Virus record (IMG/VR): IMGVR_UViG_3300036908_000165 | Coordinates: 1-60,942 of that record | Source: a virus | Taxonomy: Duplodnaviria > Caudoviricetes | DNA: 60,942 nt | Direction: 5' to 3' (one strand) | Shown here: in pieces, positions 1,525 through 27,364 of the stretch | How positions within the stretch are numbered: the stretch's first letter is position 1 | Layout of the letters: each line of letters opens with the position of its first letter | Program-made: the position numbers and the translations under genes | Notes under the pieces: model-generated | Seen by the model: the letters and a program-made list of their open reading frames with translations, nothing else | The model's database searches: none | Told to the model about the DNA's origin: nothing

Positions 1525-2099
1525 TGGATGCCCAATGTCTCCCGCGTGAAACCGTCCGGGTCACGCAAGAACGCCTCGATCTGATCGTCCCGGTGCTTGT
1601 CCGGATTGCGATGCAGTTCCGCCCGAGCCTCGTCCGCGTTCTTCGTACCGAACAAGTCGAGATCCTGGCTACGCCAAGTCGGGCCGGCCGGCGCGGTCGG
1701 CGGCGTCTTGGAAGCGACCCAAGCCGCAGCGGCGTCGGCGTCGGCATAATTGCCGGTCTCTTTCATCCGGCCGACCATCTTGTCGAAGCCTTCGTCGGTC
1801 AGGTTGTATTCCTGCCGGGCTTTCGCCAGGGCGGATTCGAGATTGGCCTGCGCGGCGCGCTGCTCGCGCGCTTCCTTGTCGGCGGCGCGCGAGGCTTCCA
1901 TGTCGTCGAGACGCTTCTTCAGCGCGGCGTTCTCGGCCTGAAGCGGCGCAACGAACGGCGCCACGGTGTCGTCGATGATCTTGGCGTCGGGGAACTTCGC
2001 CTTGGCGGCGCGGCGAACCTTCTCGCCGATCTCGCCGTCGCTCCACAGCTGCTCTAACAGCTCGGCGGCGCGAATCTGAGCTTGGGTGGCTTCGGCCAT
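1521..2099 (-). CDS. Putative capsid scaffolding protein
   Basis: Start MAEATQ at 2099; helical, charged, coiled-coil; just upstream of the capsid gene. Confidence 0.6.
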   Translation of the reverse strand: MAEATQAQIRAAELLEQLWSDGEIGEKVRRAAKAKFPDAKIIDDTVAPFVAPLQAENAALKKRLDDMEASRAADKEAREQRAAQANLESALAKARQEYNLTDEGFDKMVGRMKETGNYADADAAAAWVASKTPPTAPAGPTWRSQDLDLFGTKNADEARAELHRNPDKHRDDQIEAFLRDPDGFTRETLGIQ

Positions 2100-2100
2100 T

Positions 2101-2301
2101 TTACTTGGCCCTCGGCGCCGAGCCGCGCGACCCGTCCTTGCCGACGTGGTCGATCGACTTAATTCCGCTGAGACTGCCCTTCGGCTGAGCCGACGGGCGC
2201 GCGCCGATGCCCATCGCATCGAAATCGGCGACGTATTCCATCAGGCTGCGATCGATCTTGACGTCGCCATCGTAAGGCTTGGGAAATTTTCCGCTGGTCA
2301 T
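2101..2301 (-). CDS. Small head-module protein, 66 aa
   Basis: CAGGAG RBS; abuts its neighbours. Confidence 0.6.
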   Translation of the reverse strand: MTSGKFPKPYDGDVKIDRSLMEYVADFDAMGIGARPSAQPKGSLSGIKSIDHVGKDGSRGSAPRAK

Positions 2302-2302
2302 A

Positions 2303-2704
2303 TCAAGCTCCTGGCATCGGTGGCATTGGCGAACCGCCGCCCGCGGCGGGCGGAGGTGGAGAAGCAGCGCCCGCTCCGGGCATCTGCGGGGCCGGCGCGC
2401 CGGCCTGCTTGGCGTTTCGCGCCATCTCGACGAGTTGCTGGATCATCGCGCCGGGATCGCCCTTCGCGCCGCCCTCTTTCTCAACAGCTTTGCCGATCTC
2501 GGTCAGAGCCTTGAGAACGGCGGTGTGGACGCCGGAACCCATCGGGAGCGCAGGAAGGGCTTCTTGCAACCCTTTGAGCGACAATTTCAGCTTCTCCATG
2601 CCGCTTGCCGCCGCGCCCTTCATCGGACCGGGCGCCGACGCTGGGCCAGCCACGCCCGCCTGTGGCGGGGAAGGCGGAGCGCCGGGCATCATCGGCATAG
2701 GCAT
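2303..2704 (-). CDS. Pro/Gly/Met-rich head-module protein, 133 aa
   Basis: GAGG RBS; helical core with disordered Pro-rich ends. Confidence 0.65.
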   Translation of the reverse strand: MPMPMMPGAPPSPPQAGVAGPASAPGPMKGAAASGMEKLKLSLKGLQEALPALPMGSGVHTAVLKALTEIGKAVEKEGGAKGDPGAMIQQLVEMARNAKQAGAPAPQMPGAGAASPPPPAAGGGSPMPPMPGA

Positions 2705-2725
2705 TCTGAAAAACCTCAGTGTGTT

Positions 2726-2751
2726 GGGCGGGGCGCGCGAACGCCCCGCCC
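2726..2751. other. GC hairpin GGGCGGGGCG-N6-CGCCCCGCCC
   Basis: Perfect 10-bp stem between two head genes; no clear U-tract. Confidence 0.5.
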
Positions 2752-2773
2752 GTTGTTCACGGACGACCCGGAA

Positions 2774-2812
2774 TTACTTCCGGCGGCCCTTGCGACCCTT
2801 GTGACGCGCCAT
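2774..2812 (-). CDS. 12-aa basic micropeptide MARHKGRKGRRK
   Basis: AAGGAG-N6-ATG, GC3 codons, TAA stop; first ORF of the head operon. Confidence 0.6.
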   Translation of the reverse strand: MARHKGRKGRRK

Positions 2813-2948
2813 GGGAGTCTCCTTGTTGACGAGAGGGAAGAGACTAGCCTCACCCCTACGAAACGAGAGACTACGCTGGACCAGAAGGCCGTGTCAATAT
2901 ATCATGCAAAAAAGACGAAACATATCAATACCATAGGATGATATCAAA

Positions 2949-4736
2949 ATGAAGATACCCCATGACGCCAAGCGGCTGATCCAGTTCGTCCGCGAGACCG
3001 CGTCGCACTGCATGTCGTCCCGCCAGGCGCGAATGAACCGCGGCGCCTTCTACCAGGGCTACGTCGACACCGGTTCGTCGGACGCAACGACGCCGGCGAT
3101 GTACAACAAGCTGTGGGTGTCGCTCGACGACCTCGAATCCCTTCTGTTTTCCCCCGTATCGCTGCGCTTCCACATCGGCGACCCCGACTATCCCTCGGTG
3201 ATCAACGAAGCCAAAGGCCGCGCCGCGGCCGCGCACATCCGAAACCAATACCGGCGCTGCGACGGCGACTCGATGTTCAGCCAGGCGGTCAACATCGGCT
3301 TGGTGCGCGGCAAAGGGCTCGTCAAGCAGAGCTTCGCCGGCGGGCGCCTGTCGACATGGCTGGTGCAGCCCGAGGATTTCGGCGTGCTGCGCGAGAACTA
3401 CGATCGCCTCGACGAGAACATGGGCGCCTTCAACCACTCGATGCTGGTCACGTTCGACCAATTCGTCGGCCTGGTGAAGAACCACCCCGATAAAAACGAG
3501 ATGCTGAAGAAGGTCAAAGCCTATACGCGCGACAGCGCCGGCCTGACCGACACGCGCGGCGGCACGGCGATGAACATCACCGTCGGCGGTCTCTATCCGA
3601 TGCAGGCGGCGGGACAAGGCGGACCCCAGGTAAACGGGCGCGTCGACTGGATGGGCCGCCCGCAACCACAGCTCGATCCGGCCGTCGAGCAGACGTTGAT
3701 CGAGCTCAACGAGACGTGGATCTGGGACGACCAGCGCGAAGATTGGGCGACGTTCCAGATCGTCGGCGACGACCTCTTGGTGATGGGAAAATACACGATC
3801 CAGAATGCGCTGGCGTTCGACCCGTCATCGCAAACTTCGGCGCCGTGCTTGAAGGGCGACCACCCCTATTCGACGTTCTGCCCCAATCCCGTACCGACCT
3901 ATTTCTGGGGCGCGTCCGAGGTACAGCGCCTGATCTTCCTGCAAGAGGCGATCAACGCGCGGCTCGTCGGCACGAACAAGATGCTGCGCATGCAGGAAGA
4001 CCCGACGACCAGGTTCGTCGGCTCGACCGGCGTCAACCAGCTGGCGCTGTCGAAATACAAGAAGCCGGGCGGTTACTACGTCGAAATGAACGCCAACGCC
4101 AAGATCGAGAAAGATCGCGTCGAAATTCCGCAGGACCTGTGGGCCTCACTGCACGAATACGAACGCATGTTCGACGAGATGATGGGCGTGCCGCCGATCG
4201 CCAAAGGCCACGGCGAAAAAGGCGTGCGCTCCGGCGCCCACGCCGACACGCTGGTTCGCATGTTCTCGCCGCGCTTCAAGGATCGCGCGCTGCTGATCGA
4301 ACGCGACATCGAACGCAGCGGCGCACTGACGCTCGACATGGCGCGCGTCCACGTCGCCAAGAAGCTCGTCGCCTGGGTTCCCGAGGCCGAAGCTTCGCTG
4401 CAGAACGTATCGACGCCGGAAGAAAACTTGCTGCTGACGCCGCCGGCCAAAGGCATGGTTCCGGTCTACTTCAGCTTCGACGATCTTCCCGACGACGTGA
4501 CGCTGACAGTCGACGAGCACTCGTCGTCGCCGGCGTTCTCGGCCGACGGCAAAGCGCTGATCTTCGACATGCTGAAGACCGGCCTGCTGTCGCCGATCGA
4601 GGCGGTCGAGCATCTCGACATCACCGATCCCGAAAGCGTTCAAGCCAACATCATGCGCCGCGAGATCGCCAAAGCCGAAGCCGCGCAAAAAGAAGCGCAG
4701 ATGAAACTCGCCATGCACTCAGGCGGCAAGAAATGA
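2949..4736 (+). CDS. Portal protein
   Basis: 595 aa between the terminase and head genes, strong GC3 bias. YFWGASEVQRLIFLQEAIN and FDEMMGVPPIAKGHGEKGVRSG resemble podoviral portal motifs. Confidence 0.8.
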   Translation: MKIPHDAKRLIQFVRETASHCMSSRQARMNRGAFYQGYVDTGSSDATTPAMYNKLWVSLDDLESLLFSPVSLRFHIGDPDYPSVINEAKGRAAAAHIRNQYRRCDGDSMFSQAVNIGLVRGKGLVKQSFAGGRLSTWLVQPEDFGVLRENYDRLDENMGAFNHSMLVTFDQFVGLVKNHPDKNEMLKKVKAYTRDSAGLTDTRGGTAMNITVGGLYPMQAAGQGGPQVNGRVDWMGRPQPQLDPAVEQTLIELNETWIWDDQREDWATFQIVGDDLLVMGKYTIQNALAFDPSSQTSAPCLKGDHPYSTFCPNPVPTYFWGASEVQRLIFLQEAINARLVGTNKMLRMQEDPTTRFVGSTGVNQLALSKYKKPGGYYVEMNANAKIEKDRVEIPQDLWASLHEYERMFDEMMGVPPIAKGHGEKGVRSGAHADTLVRMFSPRFKDRALLIERDIERSGALTLDMARVHVAKKLVAWVPEAEASLQNVSTPEENLLLTPPAKGMVPVYFSFDDLPDDVTLTVDEHSSSPAFSADGKALIFDMLKTGLLSPIEAVEHLDITDPESVQANIMRREIAKAEAAQKEAQMKLAMHSGGKK

Positions 4737-4774
4737 AAAACCCCACCGCGTAGGGCCGTAGTACGCGGCGGGGT
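4736..4774 (-). terminator. Intrinsic terminator between the convergent portal and terminase operon
   Basis: GC-rich stem followed by a T5 tract on the minus strand. Confidence 0.55.
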
Positions 4775-4847
4775 AGTCTGGGAGGAAACATCCGACCCGC
4801 AGGTTGGGGGACCTGTTCGGAACGGCTTGACGATAGGCCAATTCGAC

Positions 4848-5069
4848 CTAAACGTCAACCTTTCTTGCCTTTCGGCGCGCTATCCGACGCGGGGACATCA
4901 TCTCCGTTTGGTCCCTTTCCCGCTTTCTTATTGCGGCTCCGATCGCTTCGCTCAGATTGCTGATCTCGCCGCGGAACTTCACCGCCTCCGCCAGCGTCGG
5001 CACTCTGTTCTGCGCGATTGTCTTCTCGGACATGCCCTTAGTCCTGATTGGATACCGAATCTCCATCAC
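4848..5069 (-). CDS. Hypothetical basic protein
   Basis: GGAGG RBS; overlaps the upstream stop. Confidence 0.45.
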   Translation of the reverse strand: MMEIRYPIRTKGMSEKTIAQNRVPTLAEAVKFRGEISNLSEAIGAAIRKRERDQTEMMSPRRIARRKARKVDV

Positions 5070-12459: not shown

Positions 12460-12807
12460 ACGCTAACCCTTGCCGCGGTTGAGCGCCGCGGCGAGATTTA
12501 GCAGTCAACCGAGCAAGAGGAGTAGACCATGCTTTACGACAATGACGAATTCGAGCGCGGCGGGCGGATCGCTCGTTTTCAGCGCCGGTCGCGCCTACTA
12601 CTACCTGGGAGATTGACGCCATGACCGCTTGGATCGATCCGCGCGCCCCGCGACGCCCCTTGCTGCGCTCGCCGGGCTTTCGCCGGCGCATGGCGCTGAG
12701 ACGCGCCGGCGCCCTTCTCATGGACGCTCTCGAGCTGGTAGCAATCGCCGCCTTTGTCGGCGGTTTACTGGCGATGCTCGAGGCTCTTTCACACTGAGGG
12801 TGAGCCG

Positions 12808-22904: not shown

Positions 22905-24497
22905 TCAGGGGCGGCAGGCGAGCGCGGCTTCGATGAACGCCGCGGCAACCTGGGGGACGATCGAATTGCCGTAGGCGCGCAGTTTGCCCACTCGGGCGGG
23001 TATCCCATGAGCAAGAGGAAACGGGATCATGCCAGCGCGCTCCGCTTCGTATGCGAGAGCTTGTGACAGGACGGGCAGAGCGTTTGCAGATTGTCCGGCG
23101 CATTGTTGGCTGGAGTTTCGTCCCTGTGGTGGACATGCAGTTTCCGATCGGTTGCGCCGCAATTCTCGCAGGCCAGCTTCCGGTGTTTGCCAGCACGCAG
23201 ATGGTAGGTGGTCGAGGAATCGCCACCCTTCTCTCGCGAGTTCGCGCAAAAAAGCGAGCAGAACCGGCGCTTCGTAAACGCTCCGAAATCTTCTAGGCGT
23301 CCGTGGAAGCGACTGCGTTGCAAAACTGAGCCACAGGTCTCGCAGTGCTTCTCTGGTGTCGGCTTCGCTGATCTTGGCATCGGTTAACGCTTCCTCGATT
23401 TTGGAGAAACTGTCGGTGCGCAGTCGTCCCAACATTTCGGATAGCCCATCAGCCATCTGCTGTGGGCCGGGCTCAACTGGCCTGCTTTTGCCGTCCCGAC
23501 ACTCAAGCCAATCGGTTTCGGCCCAAGGGCCTCGGCTGCGTTGAGGCTGCGCCCCTCTTGAAAGTCCTCCGATCTGCGTTTCTCGTTCGCTGTCGGCGTT
23601 GCCCACGGCGCTTCCTGACTGCCGTGCGCATCCGGGAAGCCCCACTTGTTTGCCCGCGGTGTAGACCAAGCTGCCGTTCTCGGTAGGGAAACTTGCTTCC
23701 TCCCCTCGATATTTCTCGCTCCTGCCTTTGCGTCCTCCCCGTTCGGAGTCGGCCATGCCGCCTGCGCCGCTTGCCCCGACAGATGCGGCGCCCCGCTCCT
23801 GTCTCGCGCGTTCGGCCCCCCGTGGTCGCCGTCCGTCGCTTGGGGCGTTCGCCACGAGGCTGTTTTCGCCATCACCTGAAGCGACGTGATCGCCGTTCGC
23901 TTGCTCCCCGTTCCGTCGCGCTCGCCCATCCGCAGCTTCATCGCCAGATGCGCTTCGGGCGATTTGTTGTCGTCGTTCGCCACCGGCGTCGGCCACGAAC
24001 CACAATCGCTGTCGGATATGTGGAGCGCCGACGCTCGCAGCAGGCAATACGGCCGCCCCGCAGGCGTAGCCTTGTCCTTCCAGGTCAGAGAAAACAAGGT
24101 CGAGCCAGCCGTGGCCAATTGCCGCTTCAACCTGCTCGCCAAACACTCGGTCAGGTCGCGACTCTTTGATGAGCTTGAACCATGCGGGCCAAAGGTGTCG
24201 ATCATCGGCGGCGCCTTTACCTTGTCCGGCGGCGGAAAATGGCTGGCACGGGCAACTTCCGGTCCAAAGCGGGAGATCGTCGGGGATGCCGGCGAGTCGC
24301 AGGGCGTAGGCCCAGCCGGCGATTCCGCTGAAGAAGTGGCAGCGGGTGAATCCCCACAGGTCCATTGGCTGGACGTCTCGGATGTCTCGTTCGTCGACAA
24401 AGCCATCGGGAATGTGCCCCGCTTTCATCAGGTTGCGCGTCCACTGCGCGGCGAATGCGTTATTTTCGTTGTGGTAGTCGCGCGGTATTTCTTCCAT
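22905..24497 (-). CDS. C5 cytosine DNA methyltransferase, alpha-like polypeptide
   Basis: FFSGIAG, SCPCQPFS, GEQV, HIRQRLW and motif X YGNSIVPQVA. Confidence 0.9.
   Translation of the reverse strand: MEEIPRDYHNENNAFAAQWTRNLMKAGHIPDGFVDERDIRDVQPMDLWGFTRCHFFSGIAGWAYALRLAGIPDDLPLWTGSCPCQPFSAAGQGKGAADDRHLWPAWFKLIKESRPDRVFGEQVEAAIGHGWLDLVFSDLEGQGYACGAAVLPAASVGAPHIRQRLWFVADAGGERRQQIARSASGDEAADGRARRNGEQANGDHVASGDGENSLVANAPSDGRRPRGAERARQERGAASVGASGAGGMADSERGGRKGRSEKYRGEEASFPTENGSLVYTAGKQVGLPGCARQSGSAVGNADSERETQIGGLSRGAQPQRSRGPWAETDWLECRDGKSRPVEPGPQQMADGLSEMLGRLRTDSFSKIEEALTDAKISEADTREALRDLWLSFATQSLPRTPRRFRSVYEAPVLLAFLRELAREGWRFLDHLPSACWQTPEAGLRELRRNRSETACPPQGRNSSQQCAGQSANALPVLSQALAYEAERAGMIPFPLAHGIPARVGKLRAYGNSIVPQVAAAFIEAALACRP
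23027..23380 (-). CDS. HNH endonuclease nested in the MTase gene
   Basis: CENC...HVHHRDETPANNAPDNLQTLCPSCHKLSH. Confidence 0.85.
   Translation of the reverse strand: MPRSAKPTPEKHCETCGSVLQRSRFHGRLEDFGAFTKRRFCSLFCANSREKGGDSSTTYHLRAGKHRKLACENCGATDRKLHVHHRDETPANNAPDNLQTLCPSCHKLSHTKRSALA
23384..24406 (-). CDS. Alternative-frame MTase beta-like polypeptide
   Basis: Five W-x-TP repeats and motif IX-like LSPAHSRWLMGYP; exact start uncertain. Confidence 0.7.
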   Translation of the reverse strand: MALSTNETSETSSQWTCGDSPAATSSAESPAGPTPCDSPASPTISRFGPEVARASHFPPPDKVKAPPMIDTFGPHGSSSSKSRDLTECLASRLKRQLATAGSTLFSLTWKDKATPAGRPYCLLRASALHISDSDCGSWPTPVANDDNKSPEAHLAMKLRMGERDGTGSKRTAITSLQVMAKTASWRTPQATDGDHGGPNARDRSGAPHLSGQAAQAAWPTPNGEDAKAGARNIEGRKQVSLPRTAAWSTPRANKWGFPDAHGSQEAPWATPTANEKRRSEDFQEGRSLNAAEALGPKPIGLSVGTAKAGQLSPAHSRWLMGYPKCWDDCAPTVSPKSRKR

Positions 24498-24504
24498 TAT
24501 CGCC

Positions 24505-24774
24505 TCACAGCAAACCGAGTGCGGCTAAATATAGATCGAGTATTTCTTCTTCTTCGCGCCACTTCGCTTTGTCCATGGCGCGGATGCGCACAGCCTTGCG
24601 CATGATCTTCGTGTCGAAGCCATTTCCCCTGGCTTCGGCGTAGATGTCTTTGATGTCGCCGGCGACCCCCTTCTTCTCTTCCGTTAGGCGTTCGATGCGT
24701 TCGATGAACGCTTTCAATTGGCCGCCGTTCAGACTGTTGTCGCCGATCCGCGGTCCTTCGGGTTGCTTCGCCAT
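24505..24774 (-). CDS. GapR/DUF2312-family DNA-binding protein
   Basis: [44 protein letters not shown]. Confidence 0.9.
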
Positions 24775-24974
24775 CACTCAATTTCCTTCTCTGCTGCTAG
24801 CCACACGGGCATCGTCACTTCGGCGAGCTTGTGGCGCTGGCCCTTGTATTCGATTTCGATCTCGCTGCGCGGCAGCCACACGTTGATTCCGTCGTCGCGC
24901 ATCACCAGGATCGCGTTGTCGGTCGGCTCGTCGCGGACGACGCGCAGCGTGTACGTAAAGAGTTCTCTGCTCAT
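24774..24974 (-). CDS. Hypothetical protein
   Basis: VWLPRSEI...VTMPVWLA, a common small phage protein pattern. Confidence 0.6.
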
Positions 24975-25156
24975 GGAGCCTCCACAACGGTCCACGGCCA
25001 CGCTCGACAGACCGGCGTCCTTGCCGCAGCATCTTCGGCTTCCTCTACGGATGAGAAAGTAGCGATAGGCGGGTCATCGCCTTCGCCAGTGTCGATTGCG
25101 ATGATGCGGTTGCCGTTCGGATTGCGAACGAGGATGACGAAAATCACAGGAATCAT
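24971..25156 (-). CDS. Hypothetical protein
   Basis: GAGG RBS; ATGA overlap downstream. Confidence 0.55.
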   Translation of the reverse strand: MIPVIFVILVRNPNGNRIIAIDTGEGDDPPIATFSSVEEAEDAAARTPVCRAWPWTVVEAP

Positions 25157-25257
25157 GATCGCCTCGTGATTGGTGGCGGCCACACCGCTCGCTATGCGTG
25201 TCGAGTGTGACCGCCGTTTCCAGCGCCATCGCGATTTGCTGCTGCTGCTGCTGCTGC

Positions 25258-25359
25258 GTTCTAGCAGGGAACGCGGCGCGGTCCAATCGCAACCATCGCT
25301 TGAGTACAGCGCCGTAAGCGGCCGTTCTAGCAGGGAACGCGGCGCGGTCCAATCGCAAC
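25258..25359 (-). CRISPR. Mini CRISPR array, type II-C-like, no cas genes
   Basis: Two identical 36-nt repeats GTTGCGATTGGACCGCGCCGCGTTCCCTGCTAGAAC (25258-25293 and 25324-25359) around a 30-nt spacer; intergenic. Confidence 0.82.
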
Positions 25360-25386
25360 GGCTACGCTGTTACGCAGCGCCGGAAA

Positions 25387-26046
25387 TCAGAACGGGATCT
25401 CGTCATCTCCGAAAAGGCCGCCGGCGCCTTTACCGTTCTTTGTCTCTTTGGGCGCTTCGCCTTCGTCGGCGATCGTCTCGGACCACTTCTCCTTGTCGAT
25501 CGGACCGGCGCCGCCCAGCCGCTCGCCTTCGGTGTGCTTCTGGAAGCCCTGGATCCCGAAGCTGACGCCGTCGCCGCTCTTGTCGTTGTGCCAGGCGAAG
25601 CAGTTGAGAATCGCCTTGCCGTAGCAGCCGGAGTAGACGGTCGTCTCGTCTTCCTGCGCGTTCGGATCCTTCCACCACACGGCCGGCGGCCGGTCCTTGT
25701 TGGCCGACGGGCGAATGAAGAACACGTCGGGGCCCATGCCAGGATGAAGCTCGCCGCTGGTCTTGTTGCGTGCTTCCTTGCCGTCGCCGGCGAGGAAGGG
25801 ACTCTTGATCAGGCCGGCTTTGGCGTTCTCGATGCCCTTCGGGCCCCATTCGGCGACGATCGTTTCGGCGACGCGTTTCTGCAATTCGGCGCGGAACTTC
25901 TTGTCAAAGATGAGCGTGCAGCCGAACTTCGGGTCCTTGCCCTCTTCCTGGGCGCGCGCCTTGAACAGCGACTGTGCGTAGCTCAGCCGGCACAAATCGC
26001 CCTTACCGGCAGGGGCTTTGAAATCGTTAGTACGAGCTTTTGCCAT
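25387..26046 (-). CDS. ssDNA-binding protein (DUF2815-like)
   Basis: RLSYA, VYSGCY, GVSFGIQGFQK..EGERLGG and acidic DDEIPF tail. Confidence 0.85.
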   Translation of the reverse strand: MAKARTNDFKAPAGKGDLCRLSYAQSLFKARAQEEGKDPKFGCTLIFDKKFRAELQKRVAETIVAEWGPKGIENAKAGLIKSPFLAGDGKEARNKTSGELHPGMGPDVFFIRPSANKDRPPAVWWKDPNAQEDETTVYSGCYGKAILNCFAWHNDKSGDGVSFGIQGFQKHTEGERLGGAGPIDKEKWSETIADEGEAPKETKNGKGAGGLFGDDEIPF

Positions 26047-26047
26047 T

Positions 26048-27364
26048 TCAGTTCTCCAGTTTCTCATGATGCCGCTCGGTCAGGCCCTTCGCCGCCGGTC
26101 GGGACGTTTTGCCCTCAGAGACCAAATTTGTGCCTTTGACGGGCTTCTCCCACAGCACTCCTTCGAGCGCCGCAAGTTCTGCTTTACGCTTGCCGAGCGT
26201 CTTTTCGAGCTGCGCCACCGAACGCACCGAGCGCTCGAATATCTGATCGTCGGATAGTGCCAGCTTAGTCTTGATCAGCGCAGCAAGCTTTGCTTCATCT
26301 TTTTCGACGTACGCGCGGTTGCCGATCTTGTCGACAATCACCCAGCCGGGGATCTGCACGCCGCGCTCGGCGGCGTTGTGCGCGTAGCCTCTGAGCGCCT
26401 TCGCCCAGTTTTCCAGAGCCTCGAGGCCGTCGAGCCAGTGCGCCAGCTCTTCCGGCGAAGCGATCTCCGGCGCATTGCCAACGACCAGCGGCGCGTCCGT
26501 CGTCGGCTCTTCGAACCATCGCACGGCCGTGTCGCTCATGACCGACAGCGCCTCTTTGCGCCGCTTCGGGCAGATGCCTTCTGCAGGACAAAACGTGCAG
26601 CTTCCGGTCGCCAGCCACGTCTCAGCCCACGCGTCGAAAGCGATACGCCCGCCGTCGAGCGCTTCGAACGCGTCGAGCGCCAGCTTCGACGCGGTCATTT
26701 TCGAGAGCAGGTCGACGGACCAGTCGATGAGATCGGCGACGTGGATATCTTCCCACGTCGCCGATCTCATCGGCTTGCCGCCGCCGACGCGTGGCTGAAC
26801 GATTGTCGAGCGAACCACATCGACGGAGACGCCGGTCAAAGACAGCAGAAAGCCGATCGCGTAGCTGCGCGCCTGCATATTCCCAGCGGCCTTGACGACG
26901 ACGCCGCGCCCGCCCTTTAGATCGACAACCTCCAACATGCGCCAGAGCGGGAAGTAAATGCCGAAATCTCCGGTGCCGCCAGCATCGAGCGGTGGATCGA
27001 GCGAGGCGAGAGACAGATGCTGCTCGATCCAGAACTGCGCGTCCTCGCCAATCGCTGCTTTGTATTCGGCGAGCCGGCTGCGACAGTAGTCGACGTAGAC
27101 CTGCGATGTGTTCGCCATCTCCTCGTCGACGAGGAATTCAAACTTGCCGGATTTTTCAATGCCGCCGAGAAAGCTGTTCGCGTCGATGTTTCCGTGCAGG
27201 CAGCGCTCAGAAATCTGATGGCAGCACGTCCCCCACGCAGCGGCTTCGGTCTCTTTGGCCTCGCACATCGTCTCCATGGCGATGGCGCCGGCGCAAGTGA
27301 CGTTGCGCGATGTCGCACTCGCAGCCCATTGCGCATGGCTGCGAGTGTGGTGAGCGGCGTTCAT
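26048..27364 (-). CDS. DUF2800/Cas4-like PD-(D/E)XK exonuclease
   Basis: GTGD...VVDLKGG, QARSY, IVQPR, CTFCPAEGIC; located next to the SSB gene. Confidence 0.85.
   Translation of the reverse strand: MNAAHHTRSHAQWAASATSRNVTCAGAIAMETMCEAKETEAAAWGTCCHQISERCLHGNIDANSFLGGIEKSGKFEFLVDEEMANTSQVYVDYCRSRLAEYKAAIGEDAQFWIEQHLSLASLDPPLDAGGTGDFGIYFPLWRMLEVVDLKGGRGVVVKAAGNMQARSYAIGFLLSLTGVSVDVVRSTIVQPRVGGGKPMRSATWEDIHVADLIDWSVDLLSKMTASKLALDAFEALDGGRIAFDAWAETWLATGSCTFCPAEGICPKRRKEALSVMSDTAVRWFEEPTTDAPLVVGNAPEIASPEELAHWLDGLEALENWAKALRGYAHNAAERGVQIPGWVIVDKIGNRAYVEKDEAKLAALIKTKLALSDDQIFERSVRSVAQLEKTLGKRKAELAALEGVLWEKPVKGTNLVSEGKTSRPAAKGLTERHHEKLEN
27277..27359. repeat. 83-bp inverted repeat, copy 2
   Basis: Reverse complement of 11873-11955 with one mismatch. 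Confidence 0.95.

Follow-up and report, generated by a model that had tools for sequence, protein, structure and literature searches.

The window, by which we mean the whole stretch of DNA analysed here, is a complete virus record of 60,942 bp with a G+C content of 61%, and most genes are encoded on the minus strand. That it is a tailed phage follows from the record type and from the presence of a major head protein, a large terminase and virion proteins. Its replication module encodes an SNF2-type helicase, a DUF2800 exonuclease, an Enc34/Gp2.5-type ssDNA-binding protein (SSB), a GapR-like protein, a C5 methyltransferase, a family A polymerase and a primase-helicase. We found no tyrosine integrase in the record, which together with the phage's own polymerase and primase would suggest that it is probably virulent.

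Within this module, downstream of the SSB gene, lie two identical 36-nt repeats (25258-25293 and 25324-25359, 100% identity), spaced 66 nt from start to start on the minus strand. The sequence of the repeat on that strand is GTTGCGATTGGACCGCGCCGCGTTCCCTGCTAGAAC. The features of the locus, in the direction of transcription, are the following.

25387..26067, minus strand: SSB gene, upstream of the array; Enc34/Gp2.5-type, with Pfam and PHROG matches.
25360..25386, minus strand: gap of 27 nt that separates repeat 1 from the SSB stop; no predicted terminator.
25324..25359, minus strand: repeat 1, first in the direction of transcription; 36 nt, identical to the host type II-C repeat.
25294..25323, minus strand: spacer, 30 nt, GGCCGCTTACGGCGCTGTACTCAAGCGATG; no target found.
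25258..25293, minus strand: repeat 2, identical to repeat 1; would supply the repeat part of the spacer crRNA.
25222..25257, minus strand: tail of 36 nt, (GCA)7 followed by AATCGCGATGGCGCT; delimited by alignment with relatives.
25175..25215, minus strand: hairpin with 11-nt arms downstream of the insertion; conserved, also in repeat-less relatives.
24971..25183, minus strand: small ORF of 70 aa from a GTG (61 aa from the ATG at 25157); no family match.
24774-25001: next small ORF, 75 aa; absent from the sister phage described below, together with the 70-aa ORF.

The first-pass annotation, made from the letters of the window, had reported two identical 36-nt repeats around a 30-nt spacer, and our coordinates and letters agree with it. 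It had placed them in an intergenic region 27 nt past the SSB stop, a placement that also held; the ORF ending in DDEIPF matched Pfam Enc34_ssDNA-bd (3.6e-21) and PHROG 112, the Gp2.5-like SSB family. A third copy of the repeat is absent from the window at up to 3 mismatches (0 matches expected, 100 shuffles), and the spacer, as had been claimed, has no second match in the window at the same threshold. The claim that the window holds no cas genes stands for Cas9 (TIGR01865) and Cas1 (PF01867), neither of which was found in profile searches of the complete record. An Rfam search over 24000-27000, with E values up to 10, assigned the repeats to no credible family, CRISPR-DR included. The GenBank phage collection held nothing resembling the mini-array locus, and the Pfam and PHROG matches beside the array included no Acr-like family.

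An open frame runs through both repeats (25074-25358, minus strand), and we rejected it as a gene; its TTG start lies inside repeat 1, its Arg-rich tail overlaps the next ORF and the GC3-based gene map skipped it. Translation of the region as a repeat peptide, named beforehand as an observation that would count against a CRISPR element, does not hold at this locus. The same repeat is nonetheless translated in frame inside the polymerase of another phage, described below.

An exact match to the 36-mer was sought in one genome per prokaryotic species. It was found in four MAGs, titled as two uncultured Alphaproteobacteria, one uncultured proteobacterium and one Acidocella sp., and in all four it forms an array, with 10, 2, 2 and 22 repeats. 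Spacers in these arrays are 28-32 nt long, 18 of the 32 being 30 nt. The contig that carries the array also carries a Cas9 above the TIGR01865 cut-off in every one of the four MAGs. In the MAG titled Acidocella sp. (L011) the array, cas2, cas1 and cas9 (1087 aa) are contiguous and the order tracrRNA / cas9-cas1-cas2 / array is intact, cas1 and cas2 being confirmed by Pfam. Csn2 was found in none of the four MAGs, in a search whose control was also silent, and Cas4 in one, on a different contig from the array. The presence of cas9, cas1 and cas2, with no Csn2 match and Cas4 only elsewhere in one MAG, points to the gene content of subtype II-C. The best PDB matches of the L011 Cas9 were Cas9 chains of 1055-1154 aa (E 2e-53 to 1e-40), which we take to be II-C orthologues, whereas Cas9/Csn1 chains of 1368 aa matched at only E 3e-6.

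The remaining three MAGs have a split or shortened cas9 frame (L010 4879-7510; L012 4921-7644; L030 10300-13500), which may reflect assembly error or decay of the locus. Their Cas9 pieces are 66-84% identical to the intact Cas9 in the longer aligned stretches. In one of these three MAGs the array abuts cas9 with no cas1-cas2 between them, and the repeats are still perfect. When 401 genomes sampled from the family of the Acidocella-titled MAG were searched at up to 3 mismatches, the repeat was present in one, and that one was the MAG itself.

Upstream of cas9, in divergent orientation, all four MAGs contain a conserved element of about 85 nt. Its parts are, in order, an anti-repeat, an AAGG segment and a GC terminator hairpin with a T-run, and by this anatomy the element is the predicted tracrRNA; in L011 it spans about 4938-5022, beside cas9 at 1626-4889. 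Over the last 21 nt of the repeat the anti-repeat is perfectly complementary in three MAGs, and the Acidocella-titled one shows two changes; pairing with the first 15 nt of the repeat is imperfect. The predicted repeat:anti-repeat duplex has an energy of -63.5 kcal/mol, compared with a mean of -27.6 kcal/mol (sd 3.7, best -38.4) for 200 shuffled repeats. Because the tail of this element follows the anti-repeat, the crRNA sense must be GTTGCG...AGAAC, which is the coding (minus) strand of the phage. The crRNA-sense strand is also the strand of the flanking phage genes.

The type II-C assignment of the repeat made in the first-pass annotation was thus supported, with arrays beside cas9 in all four MAGs and a cognate tracrRNA. 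So was its expectation that the repeat would point to hosts, since identical array repeats occur in all four alphaproteobacterial MAGs, and the search for similar repeats beside cas9 loci, an empty result of which was to have told against the proposal, found them. The phage carries one spacer between host-identical repeats and no Cas9 or Cas1 matches, as expected of a viral mini-CRISPR array. This makes the element an orphan virus-borne fragment and not a CRISPR-Cas locus. We conclude that the element is a genuine cas-less type II-C array fragment in a phage replication module.

Comparison with related phages revealed how the element is built into this site. Two repeat-less relatives gave, by intergenic alignment, the ancestral junction ...GCGTAGCC|GGA(A/G)ACGGCGG. 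A sister phage (L004/L022; SSB 90% identical) carries one repeat at the identical site and has 66 nt more than these relatives, that is the repeat (36) and a further 30 nt. The window has 138 nt more (25222-25359), consisting of repeat, spacer, repeat and the 36-nt tail (2 x 66 + 6). The tail is the 30 nt of the sister with two more GCA triplets, the (GCA)7 that lies directly after repeat 2 (25237-25257) being (GCA)5 in the sister, a length-variable microsatellite. It is possible that the tail is a second spacer that lacks its closing repeat; an exact scan with 21 of its 36 nt found the sister phage only. The insertions are thus unit-sized, the element coming in repeat-plus-spacer steps as a piece of an array would. 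Window and sister differ by exactly one spacer-plus-repeat unit, and from the alignment this difference would fit, in either direction, gain by spacer integration or loss by recombination between repeats.

Metagenomic assemblies added further variants. A DNA contig of run X6 lacks a net 138 nt at the insertion site. One from run X4 contains the end of the SSB gene and repeat 1, followed by about 60 letters unlike the window, and, judging from its equal depth, probably then rejoins the arrangement seen in the sister phage. In the sister (joint 24774->25162) and in contigs of two DNA runs, the two small ORFs of 70 and 75 aa (24775-25161) are replaced by 8 nt, so that this interval appears to be a variable accessory spot beside the repeat.

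Repeats are known to break short-read assemblies, and contigs end around 25231-25264, as would be expected had reads from a host array been misjoined into the phage contig. The independently assembled sister phage has the repeat at the same site, however, and an RNA-library contig from a different study (run X18, record 2) covers 25297-25498 with 0 differences, running from the 3' end of the SSB gene through repeat 1 into 27 nt of the spacer. Three DNA runs contain 97-98% of the sampled words of the stretch, although these may be its source samples. An assembly artefact therefore has an almost negligible chance of being the explanation. The public DNA runs that contain the stretch are labelled as peat or permafrost metagenomes, and in roughly 15 of them at least half of its sampled words are present.

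The exact 36-mer also occurs in seven other viral contigs, in all seven as a single copy without a spacer, and in three contexts. The first context is that of the sister phage. The second is a phage represented by five contigs (L003, L005-L008), where a lone repeat lies between lysis genes and a 143-aa ORF; a search for repeat-less relatives of this phage returned the same five contigs only. No second repeat is present within 100 bp in either of these phages, whose copies are therefore solitary repeats, whereas the two repeats of the window lie 30 nt apart. In the third phage (about 51% G+C; L042, also L009 and L033) the repeat lies in frame in the gene for a family A DNA polymerase (L042:12638-14581, repeat at 12736-12771), where it inserts LRLDRAAFPART between the conserved PWRVAQ and KAWATS motifs. 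The 12 inserted residues are absent from 38 of the 40 closest homologues, and the other two have unrelated insertions at this position. Within the polymerase's 90% cluster the insert is present in all six members that include the N-terminus, one of which was seen on 44 contigs. The third phage has a second locus (L042:4637-4734, equal to L033:1707-1804) composed of a partial repeat, 26 nt and a full repeat. The partial repeat is exact only in its 3' 21 nt, the part that pairs perfectly with the tracrRNA, and the full repeat has one C-to-T change; each is followed by AAGGTCG, and a 96-aa ORF lies just downstream.

Metagenome contigs with the repeat showed the same three phage contexts and one short host-type array. 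The locus connects at least three phage lineages with the genomes of four uncultured alphaproteobacteria from peat. Single spacer-less copies in three contexts suggest that the repeat itself, and not a particular spacer, is what has been retained. Among SSB-related loci the repeat was present in one of the seven examined, that of the sister phage; an eighth, which ends inside the gene, was left out. We also observed AAGG 0-3 nt after the repeat in three of four phage contexts (GAAGG, TGGAAGG, AAGG), in a post hoc comparison of L009, L007, L042 and the window; the ancestral flank at the window site is GGAAAC. The AAGG flank could be a PAM remnant or a target-site preference.

These comparisons bear on whether the element does anything at all. 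Recombination or templated repair, for example after a Cas9 cut, could have brought a piece of a host array into the phage genome, where it has had no function since. Such a scar would account for the unit-sized steps of +66 nt in the sister and +138 nt in the window, for the X6 contig without the net 138 nt, for the rarity of the repeat among relatives (1/7) and for a spacer with no target found. It sits poorly with an exact 36-mer unchanged in three unrelated phage backgrounds, with its fixation in frame in an essential polymerase gene (6/6 cluster members, one on 44 contigs) and with the second locus of the third phage, where a partial and a full repeat occur. Drift does not predict repeated unmutated retention, though a very recent capture could mimic it. 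We regard a functionless scar as distinctly improbable.

No minus-strand terminator was predicted between the SSB stop and the array. The 3' end of the repeat, GCTAGAAC, fits the -10 consensus of the alphaproteobacterial (Caulobacter) RpoD, GCtANAWC, and TTGGACC lies 14 nt upstream. The accessible text of PMC8144410 gives the Caulobacter RpoD consensus as this -10 element with a -35 of TTGaCgS; the stricter -35 pattern TTGNCNS is not matched at the repeat. The window contains 8 occurrences of the -10 motif by itself, where chance would give about 10. A scan for E. coli-type promoters found none at the repeats. The first-pass annotation had set the end of the repeat beside the extended -10 promoter of Neisseria II-C repeats; the end agrees with the RpoD -10 consensus (as given in the part of PMC8144410 consulted) and not with the E. 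coli-type extended -10 element. At the level of motifs, the 3' end of the repeat may contain a promoter. According to the sections of PMC12080349 available, II-C repeats contain promoters, and it is at the last repeat that new spacers are added.

It could be that phages keep the repeat as a portable promoter, its 3' end serving as a host RpoD promoter for downstream genes. The fit of GCTAGAAC and TTGGACC to the RpoD elements (PMC8144410, in part), the promoter-bearing II-C repeats reported in the seen portion of PMC12080349 and the intergenic contexts, with a gene start from about 20 nt (the second locus of the third phage) to 100 nt past the repeat, are what this idea can draw on. TTGNCNS is unmatched, though, and the -10 motif is no more frequent than chance (8 vs about 10). 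One copy lies inside a coding sequence, where a promoter is needless. Moreover, about 30 nt would suffice for a promoter and changes would be tolerated, yet all 36 nt are invariant, including the tracrRNA-pairing 5' part. Retention as a promoter thus appears highly improbable.

RNA libraries gave additional coverage of the locus. Besides the X18 contig, a fragment from a second RNA library covers 25326-25461 with adapters at both ends. Another RNA-library contig has the repeat between foreign sequence, indicating that some other array with this repeat is represented in that library. All of this RNA-library support consists of assembled contigs, which do not convey RNA ends, strand or processing and may derive from DNA carry-over. 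The predicted fold of the 241-nt RNA spanning the locus is no more stable than those of shuffled sequences (z = -1.11).

The annotation had offered three functions, namely an attack on a competing phage, silencing of a host gene and an RNA decoy, and had proposed a search of the spacer against viral and host sequences. We ran this search and found no target in viruses, metagenomes or the four MAGs. Exact scans gave no match in IMG/VR for the 30-mer or for either of its terminal 20-mers (5' and 3'), and none among JGI metagenome contigs for the 3' 24-mer. Neither the four host MAGs nor 10 related or co-occurring virus records had a match when up to 3 mismatches were allowed, and every hit in the GenBank phage collection had E >= 0.6. 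The collection scans were by exact match, which diverged targets would escape, so these are weak negatives.

Another possible use for such an array would be as a weapon between phages, in which a single crRNA directs host Cas9 at a competing phage or plasmid and the single-repeat forms are collapsed arrays. The canonical repeat-spacer-repeat structure, the perfect repeats and a spacer length equal to the host mode (30 nt, 18/32) all suit this explanation, and the candidate hosts have a cognate tracrRNA and Cas9. That the sister phage differs at the site by exactly one spacer-plus-repeat unit suits it as well. Most viral mini-array spacers target related viruses, according to the part of the review PMC11656645 seen, and targeting has been demonstrated for archaeal virus mini-arrays. 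Against it, the protospacer was found in none of the window, IMG/VR, JGI, the 10 virus records and the GenBank phages, the collection scans being exact-match. On balance we consider the inter-phage weapon somewhat unlikely.

We also compared the five guides that lie upstream of phage repeats with host cas loci of about 75-95 kb, and observed no 3'-anchored match of at least 10 nt. The longest match in these loci was 9 nt, none fell in the tracrRNA-cas9 intergenic region and their number was at chance. Silencing of the cas9 promoter in the style of viral scaRNAs, which we had considered as a candidate, is therefore unsupported. In the opposite direction, the 32 spacers of the four MAGs gave no match longer than 14 nt to the window and 15 viral loci, bar one 20-nt stretch with 2 mismatches. 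The 22-repeat host array gave one chance-level hit to a GenBank phage (E 1e-2) and no plasmid hit.

The reading we prefer, tentatively and with a probability of about 0.45, is that RNA of the phage repeat pairs with the host tracrRNA and occupies or redirects host Cas9, acting as a decoy with the guide as an extra. It starts from four observations, namely that the repeat is identical to that of the hosts, that it pairs with a cognate tracrRNA, that its strand is fixed and that Cas9 and Cas1 matches are absent; beyond these we infer transcription, Cas9 loading and a benefit to the phage. Transcripts of the minus-strand phage genes would extend from the SSB gene into the array, and promoters embedded in the repeats could contribute, as in other II-C arrays. 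Each repeat RNA would pair with host tracrRNA, and the duplex would load into host Cas9. Repeat 2 would yield a normal crRNA carrying the 30-nt spacer, and repeat 1 an 'extraneous' crRNA guided by the 3' UTR of the phage itself (the 27-nt gap). The main effect would be sequestration, with repeat RNAs from the replicating phage soaking up tracrRNA and Cas9 and diluting the protective crRNAs of the host. With its programmable guide, the spacer crRNA could in addition cut a competitor, though this would be a secondary effect.

Sequestration is favoured by the spacer-less single repeat being the common form across phage lineages, and by the invariance of all 36 nt, the tracrRNA-pairing part included. 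Fixation of the repeat in the polymerase cluster of the third phage (6/6) also supports it, and related decoys are documented in the accessible portions of PMC10651486 and of a preprint (10.64898/2026.06.01.729453). What weighs most against it is timing, since host Cas9 that already carries a matching crRNA lies beyond the reach of a decoy produced only once the phage DNA has entered the cell. For a probably virulent phage with a late decoy, a benefit would need cooperative or repeated infection. Other points count against a decoy as well. The window is repeat-spacer-repeat, which is a mini-array by the SRUFinder rule as it appears in the text of PMC10651486 available, and the role of mini-arrays reviewed in the corresponding part of PMC11656645 is inter-virus targeting. 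The element is rare, in one of the seven SSB-related loci, and no match to this phage, of the kind that targeting by Cas9 would leave, was seen among the 32 host spacers.

A bolder idea, which we rate as a long shot, is that the phage repeat serves for exclusion and homing guided by Cas9. Read-through of flank and repeat would give a crRNA guided by the sequence just upstream of the insertion, with which host Cas9 would cut this locus in co-infecting relatives whose allele has no repeat. The carrier would be immune because the repeat replaced the PAM. Repair from the carrier would copy the repeat in, and the element would spread like a homing endonuclease gene, without the gene. If true, homing would explain the exact 36-mer insertions at unrelated sites and the unit-sized growth at the window, the position of the repeat right after the conserved ALQPWRVAQ codons of the polymerase, and the post hoc AAGG flank in three of four contexts.

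Returning to the decoy that we prefer, its components resemble several known systems. Viral mini-arrays and solitary repeats are already established, as the consulted parts of PMC11656645 and PMC10651486 make clear. Viral mini-CRISPR arrays are described, in the former, from the archaeal portogloboviruses SPV1/SPV2 and from a bioinformatic survey. Like those (PMC11656645, same sections), the element has one spacer, host-identical repeats and no cas genes, and would need a host effector. Unlike the archaeal mini-arrays, it is of type II-C, so that host tracrRNA is also needed, its host is alphaproteobacterial and the searches above gave its spacer no match in a related virus. A solitary repeat can work as an RNA anti-CRISPR (Racr), which was tested for types I-C, I-E, I-F and V-A and found bioinformatically for type II too, in the portion of PMC10651486 available. 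The phage element shares with Racr an exact mimicry of the host repeat, single-unit forms in the sister and two other phages, and the proposed sequestration. In Racr, however, Cas6, Cas5 or Cas12a binds the repeat hairpin directly, whereas a type II repeat must first pair with tracrRNA (PMC10651486, as far as its accessible text goes). The window copy further differs from Racr in being a mini-array by the rule given there (PMC10651486, in part) and in having no recognised acr gene beside it.

Viral scaRNAs or vsgRNAs are proposed to sequester tracrRNA and Cas9, with tested examples from the II-A systems of Streptococcus and Lactobacillus, in the seen part of the preprint 10.64898/2026.06.01.729453. 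Here too, a phage guide-plus-repeat is complementary to the anti-repeat of host tracrRNA and sequestration of tracrRNA and Cas9 is proposed. The viral scaRNAs share a short guide to the cas9 promoter, according to the same part of 10.64898/2026.06.01.729453, whereas none of the five phage guides here matches over at least 10 nt; and the scaRNA element is repeat-like, where here a full array repeat is present. Repeat 1 follows the SSB gene at a distance of 27 nt without an intervening predicted terminator, a position like that of the II-C extraneous crRNA (ecrRNA) in the excerpts of PMC12080349, in which the first repeat after a transcribed gene gives rise to a non-immune crRNA that occupies Cas9. 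That source, in the same excerpts (PMC12080349), treats ecrRNA as a suppressed liability in hosts; in the phage it would be a useful product.

In the literature as far as it was accessible to us, supplementary tables apart, we found no prior report of this element or of a tested type II-C phage mini-array. The tested phage RNA inhibitors of Cas9 that we found in those sources were sgRNA- or scaRNA-like only, mostly II-A and from Firmicutes. The locus provides a natural, sequence-defined II-C case, with MAG Cas9, tracrRNA and arrays, a one-unit sister phage and two further repeat-bearing phages. It is suited to asking whether a bare type II repeat can act as an RNA anti-CRISPR via tracrRNA, whether a phage repeat can serve for spacer gain and how exact host repeats enter phage genomes.

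Two minor features of the same module lie away from the array. A near-perfect 23-nt inverted repeat with an 8-nt loop is present at 26722-26775, in the DUF2800 exonuclease gene, and its only Rfam matches, to microRNAs, were spurious. An HNH endonuclease-like ORF of 117 aa (23027-23380, minus strand) occupies another frame within the C5 methyltransferase ORF region (22905-24497), and may be a homing-endonuclease insertion or part of a split methylase.
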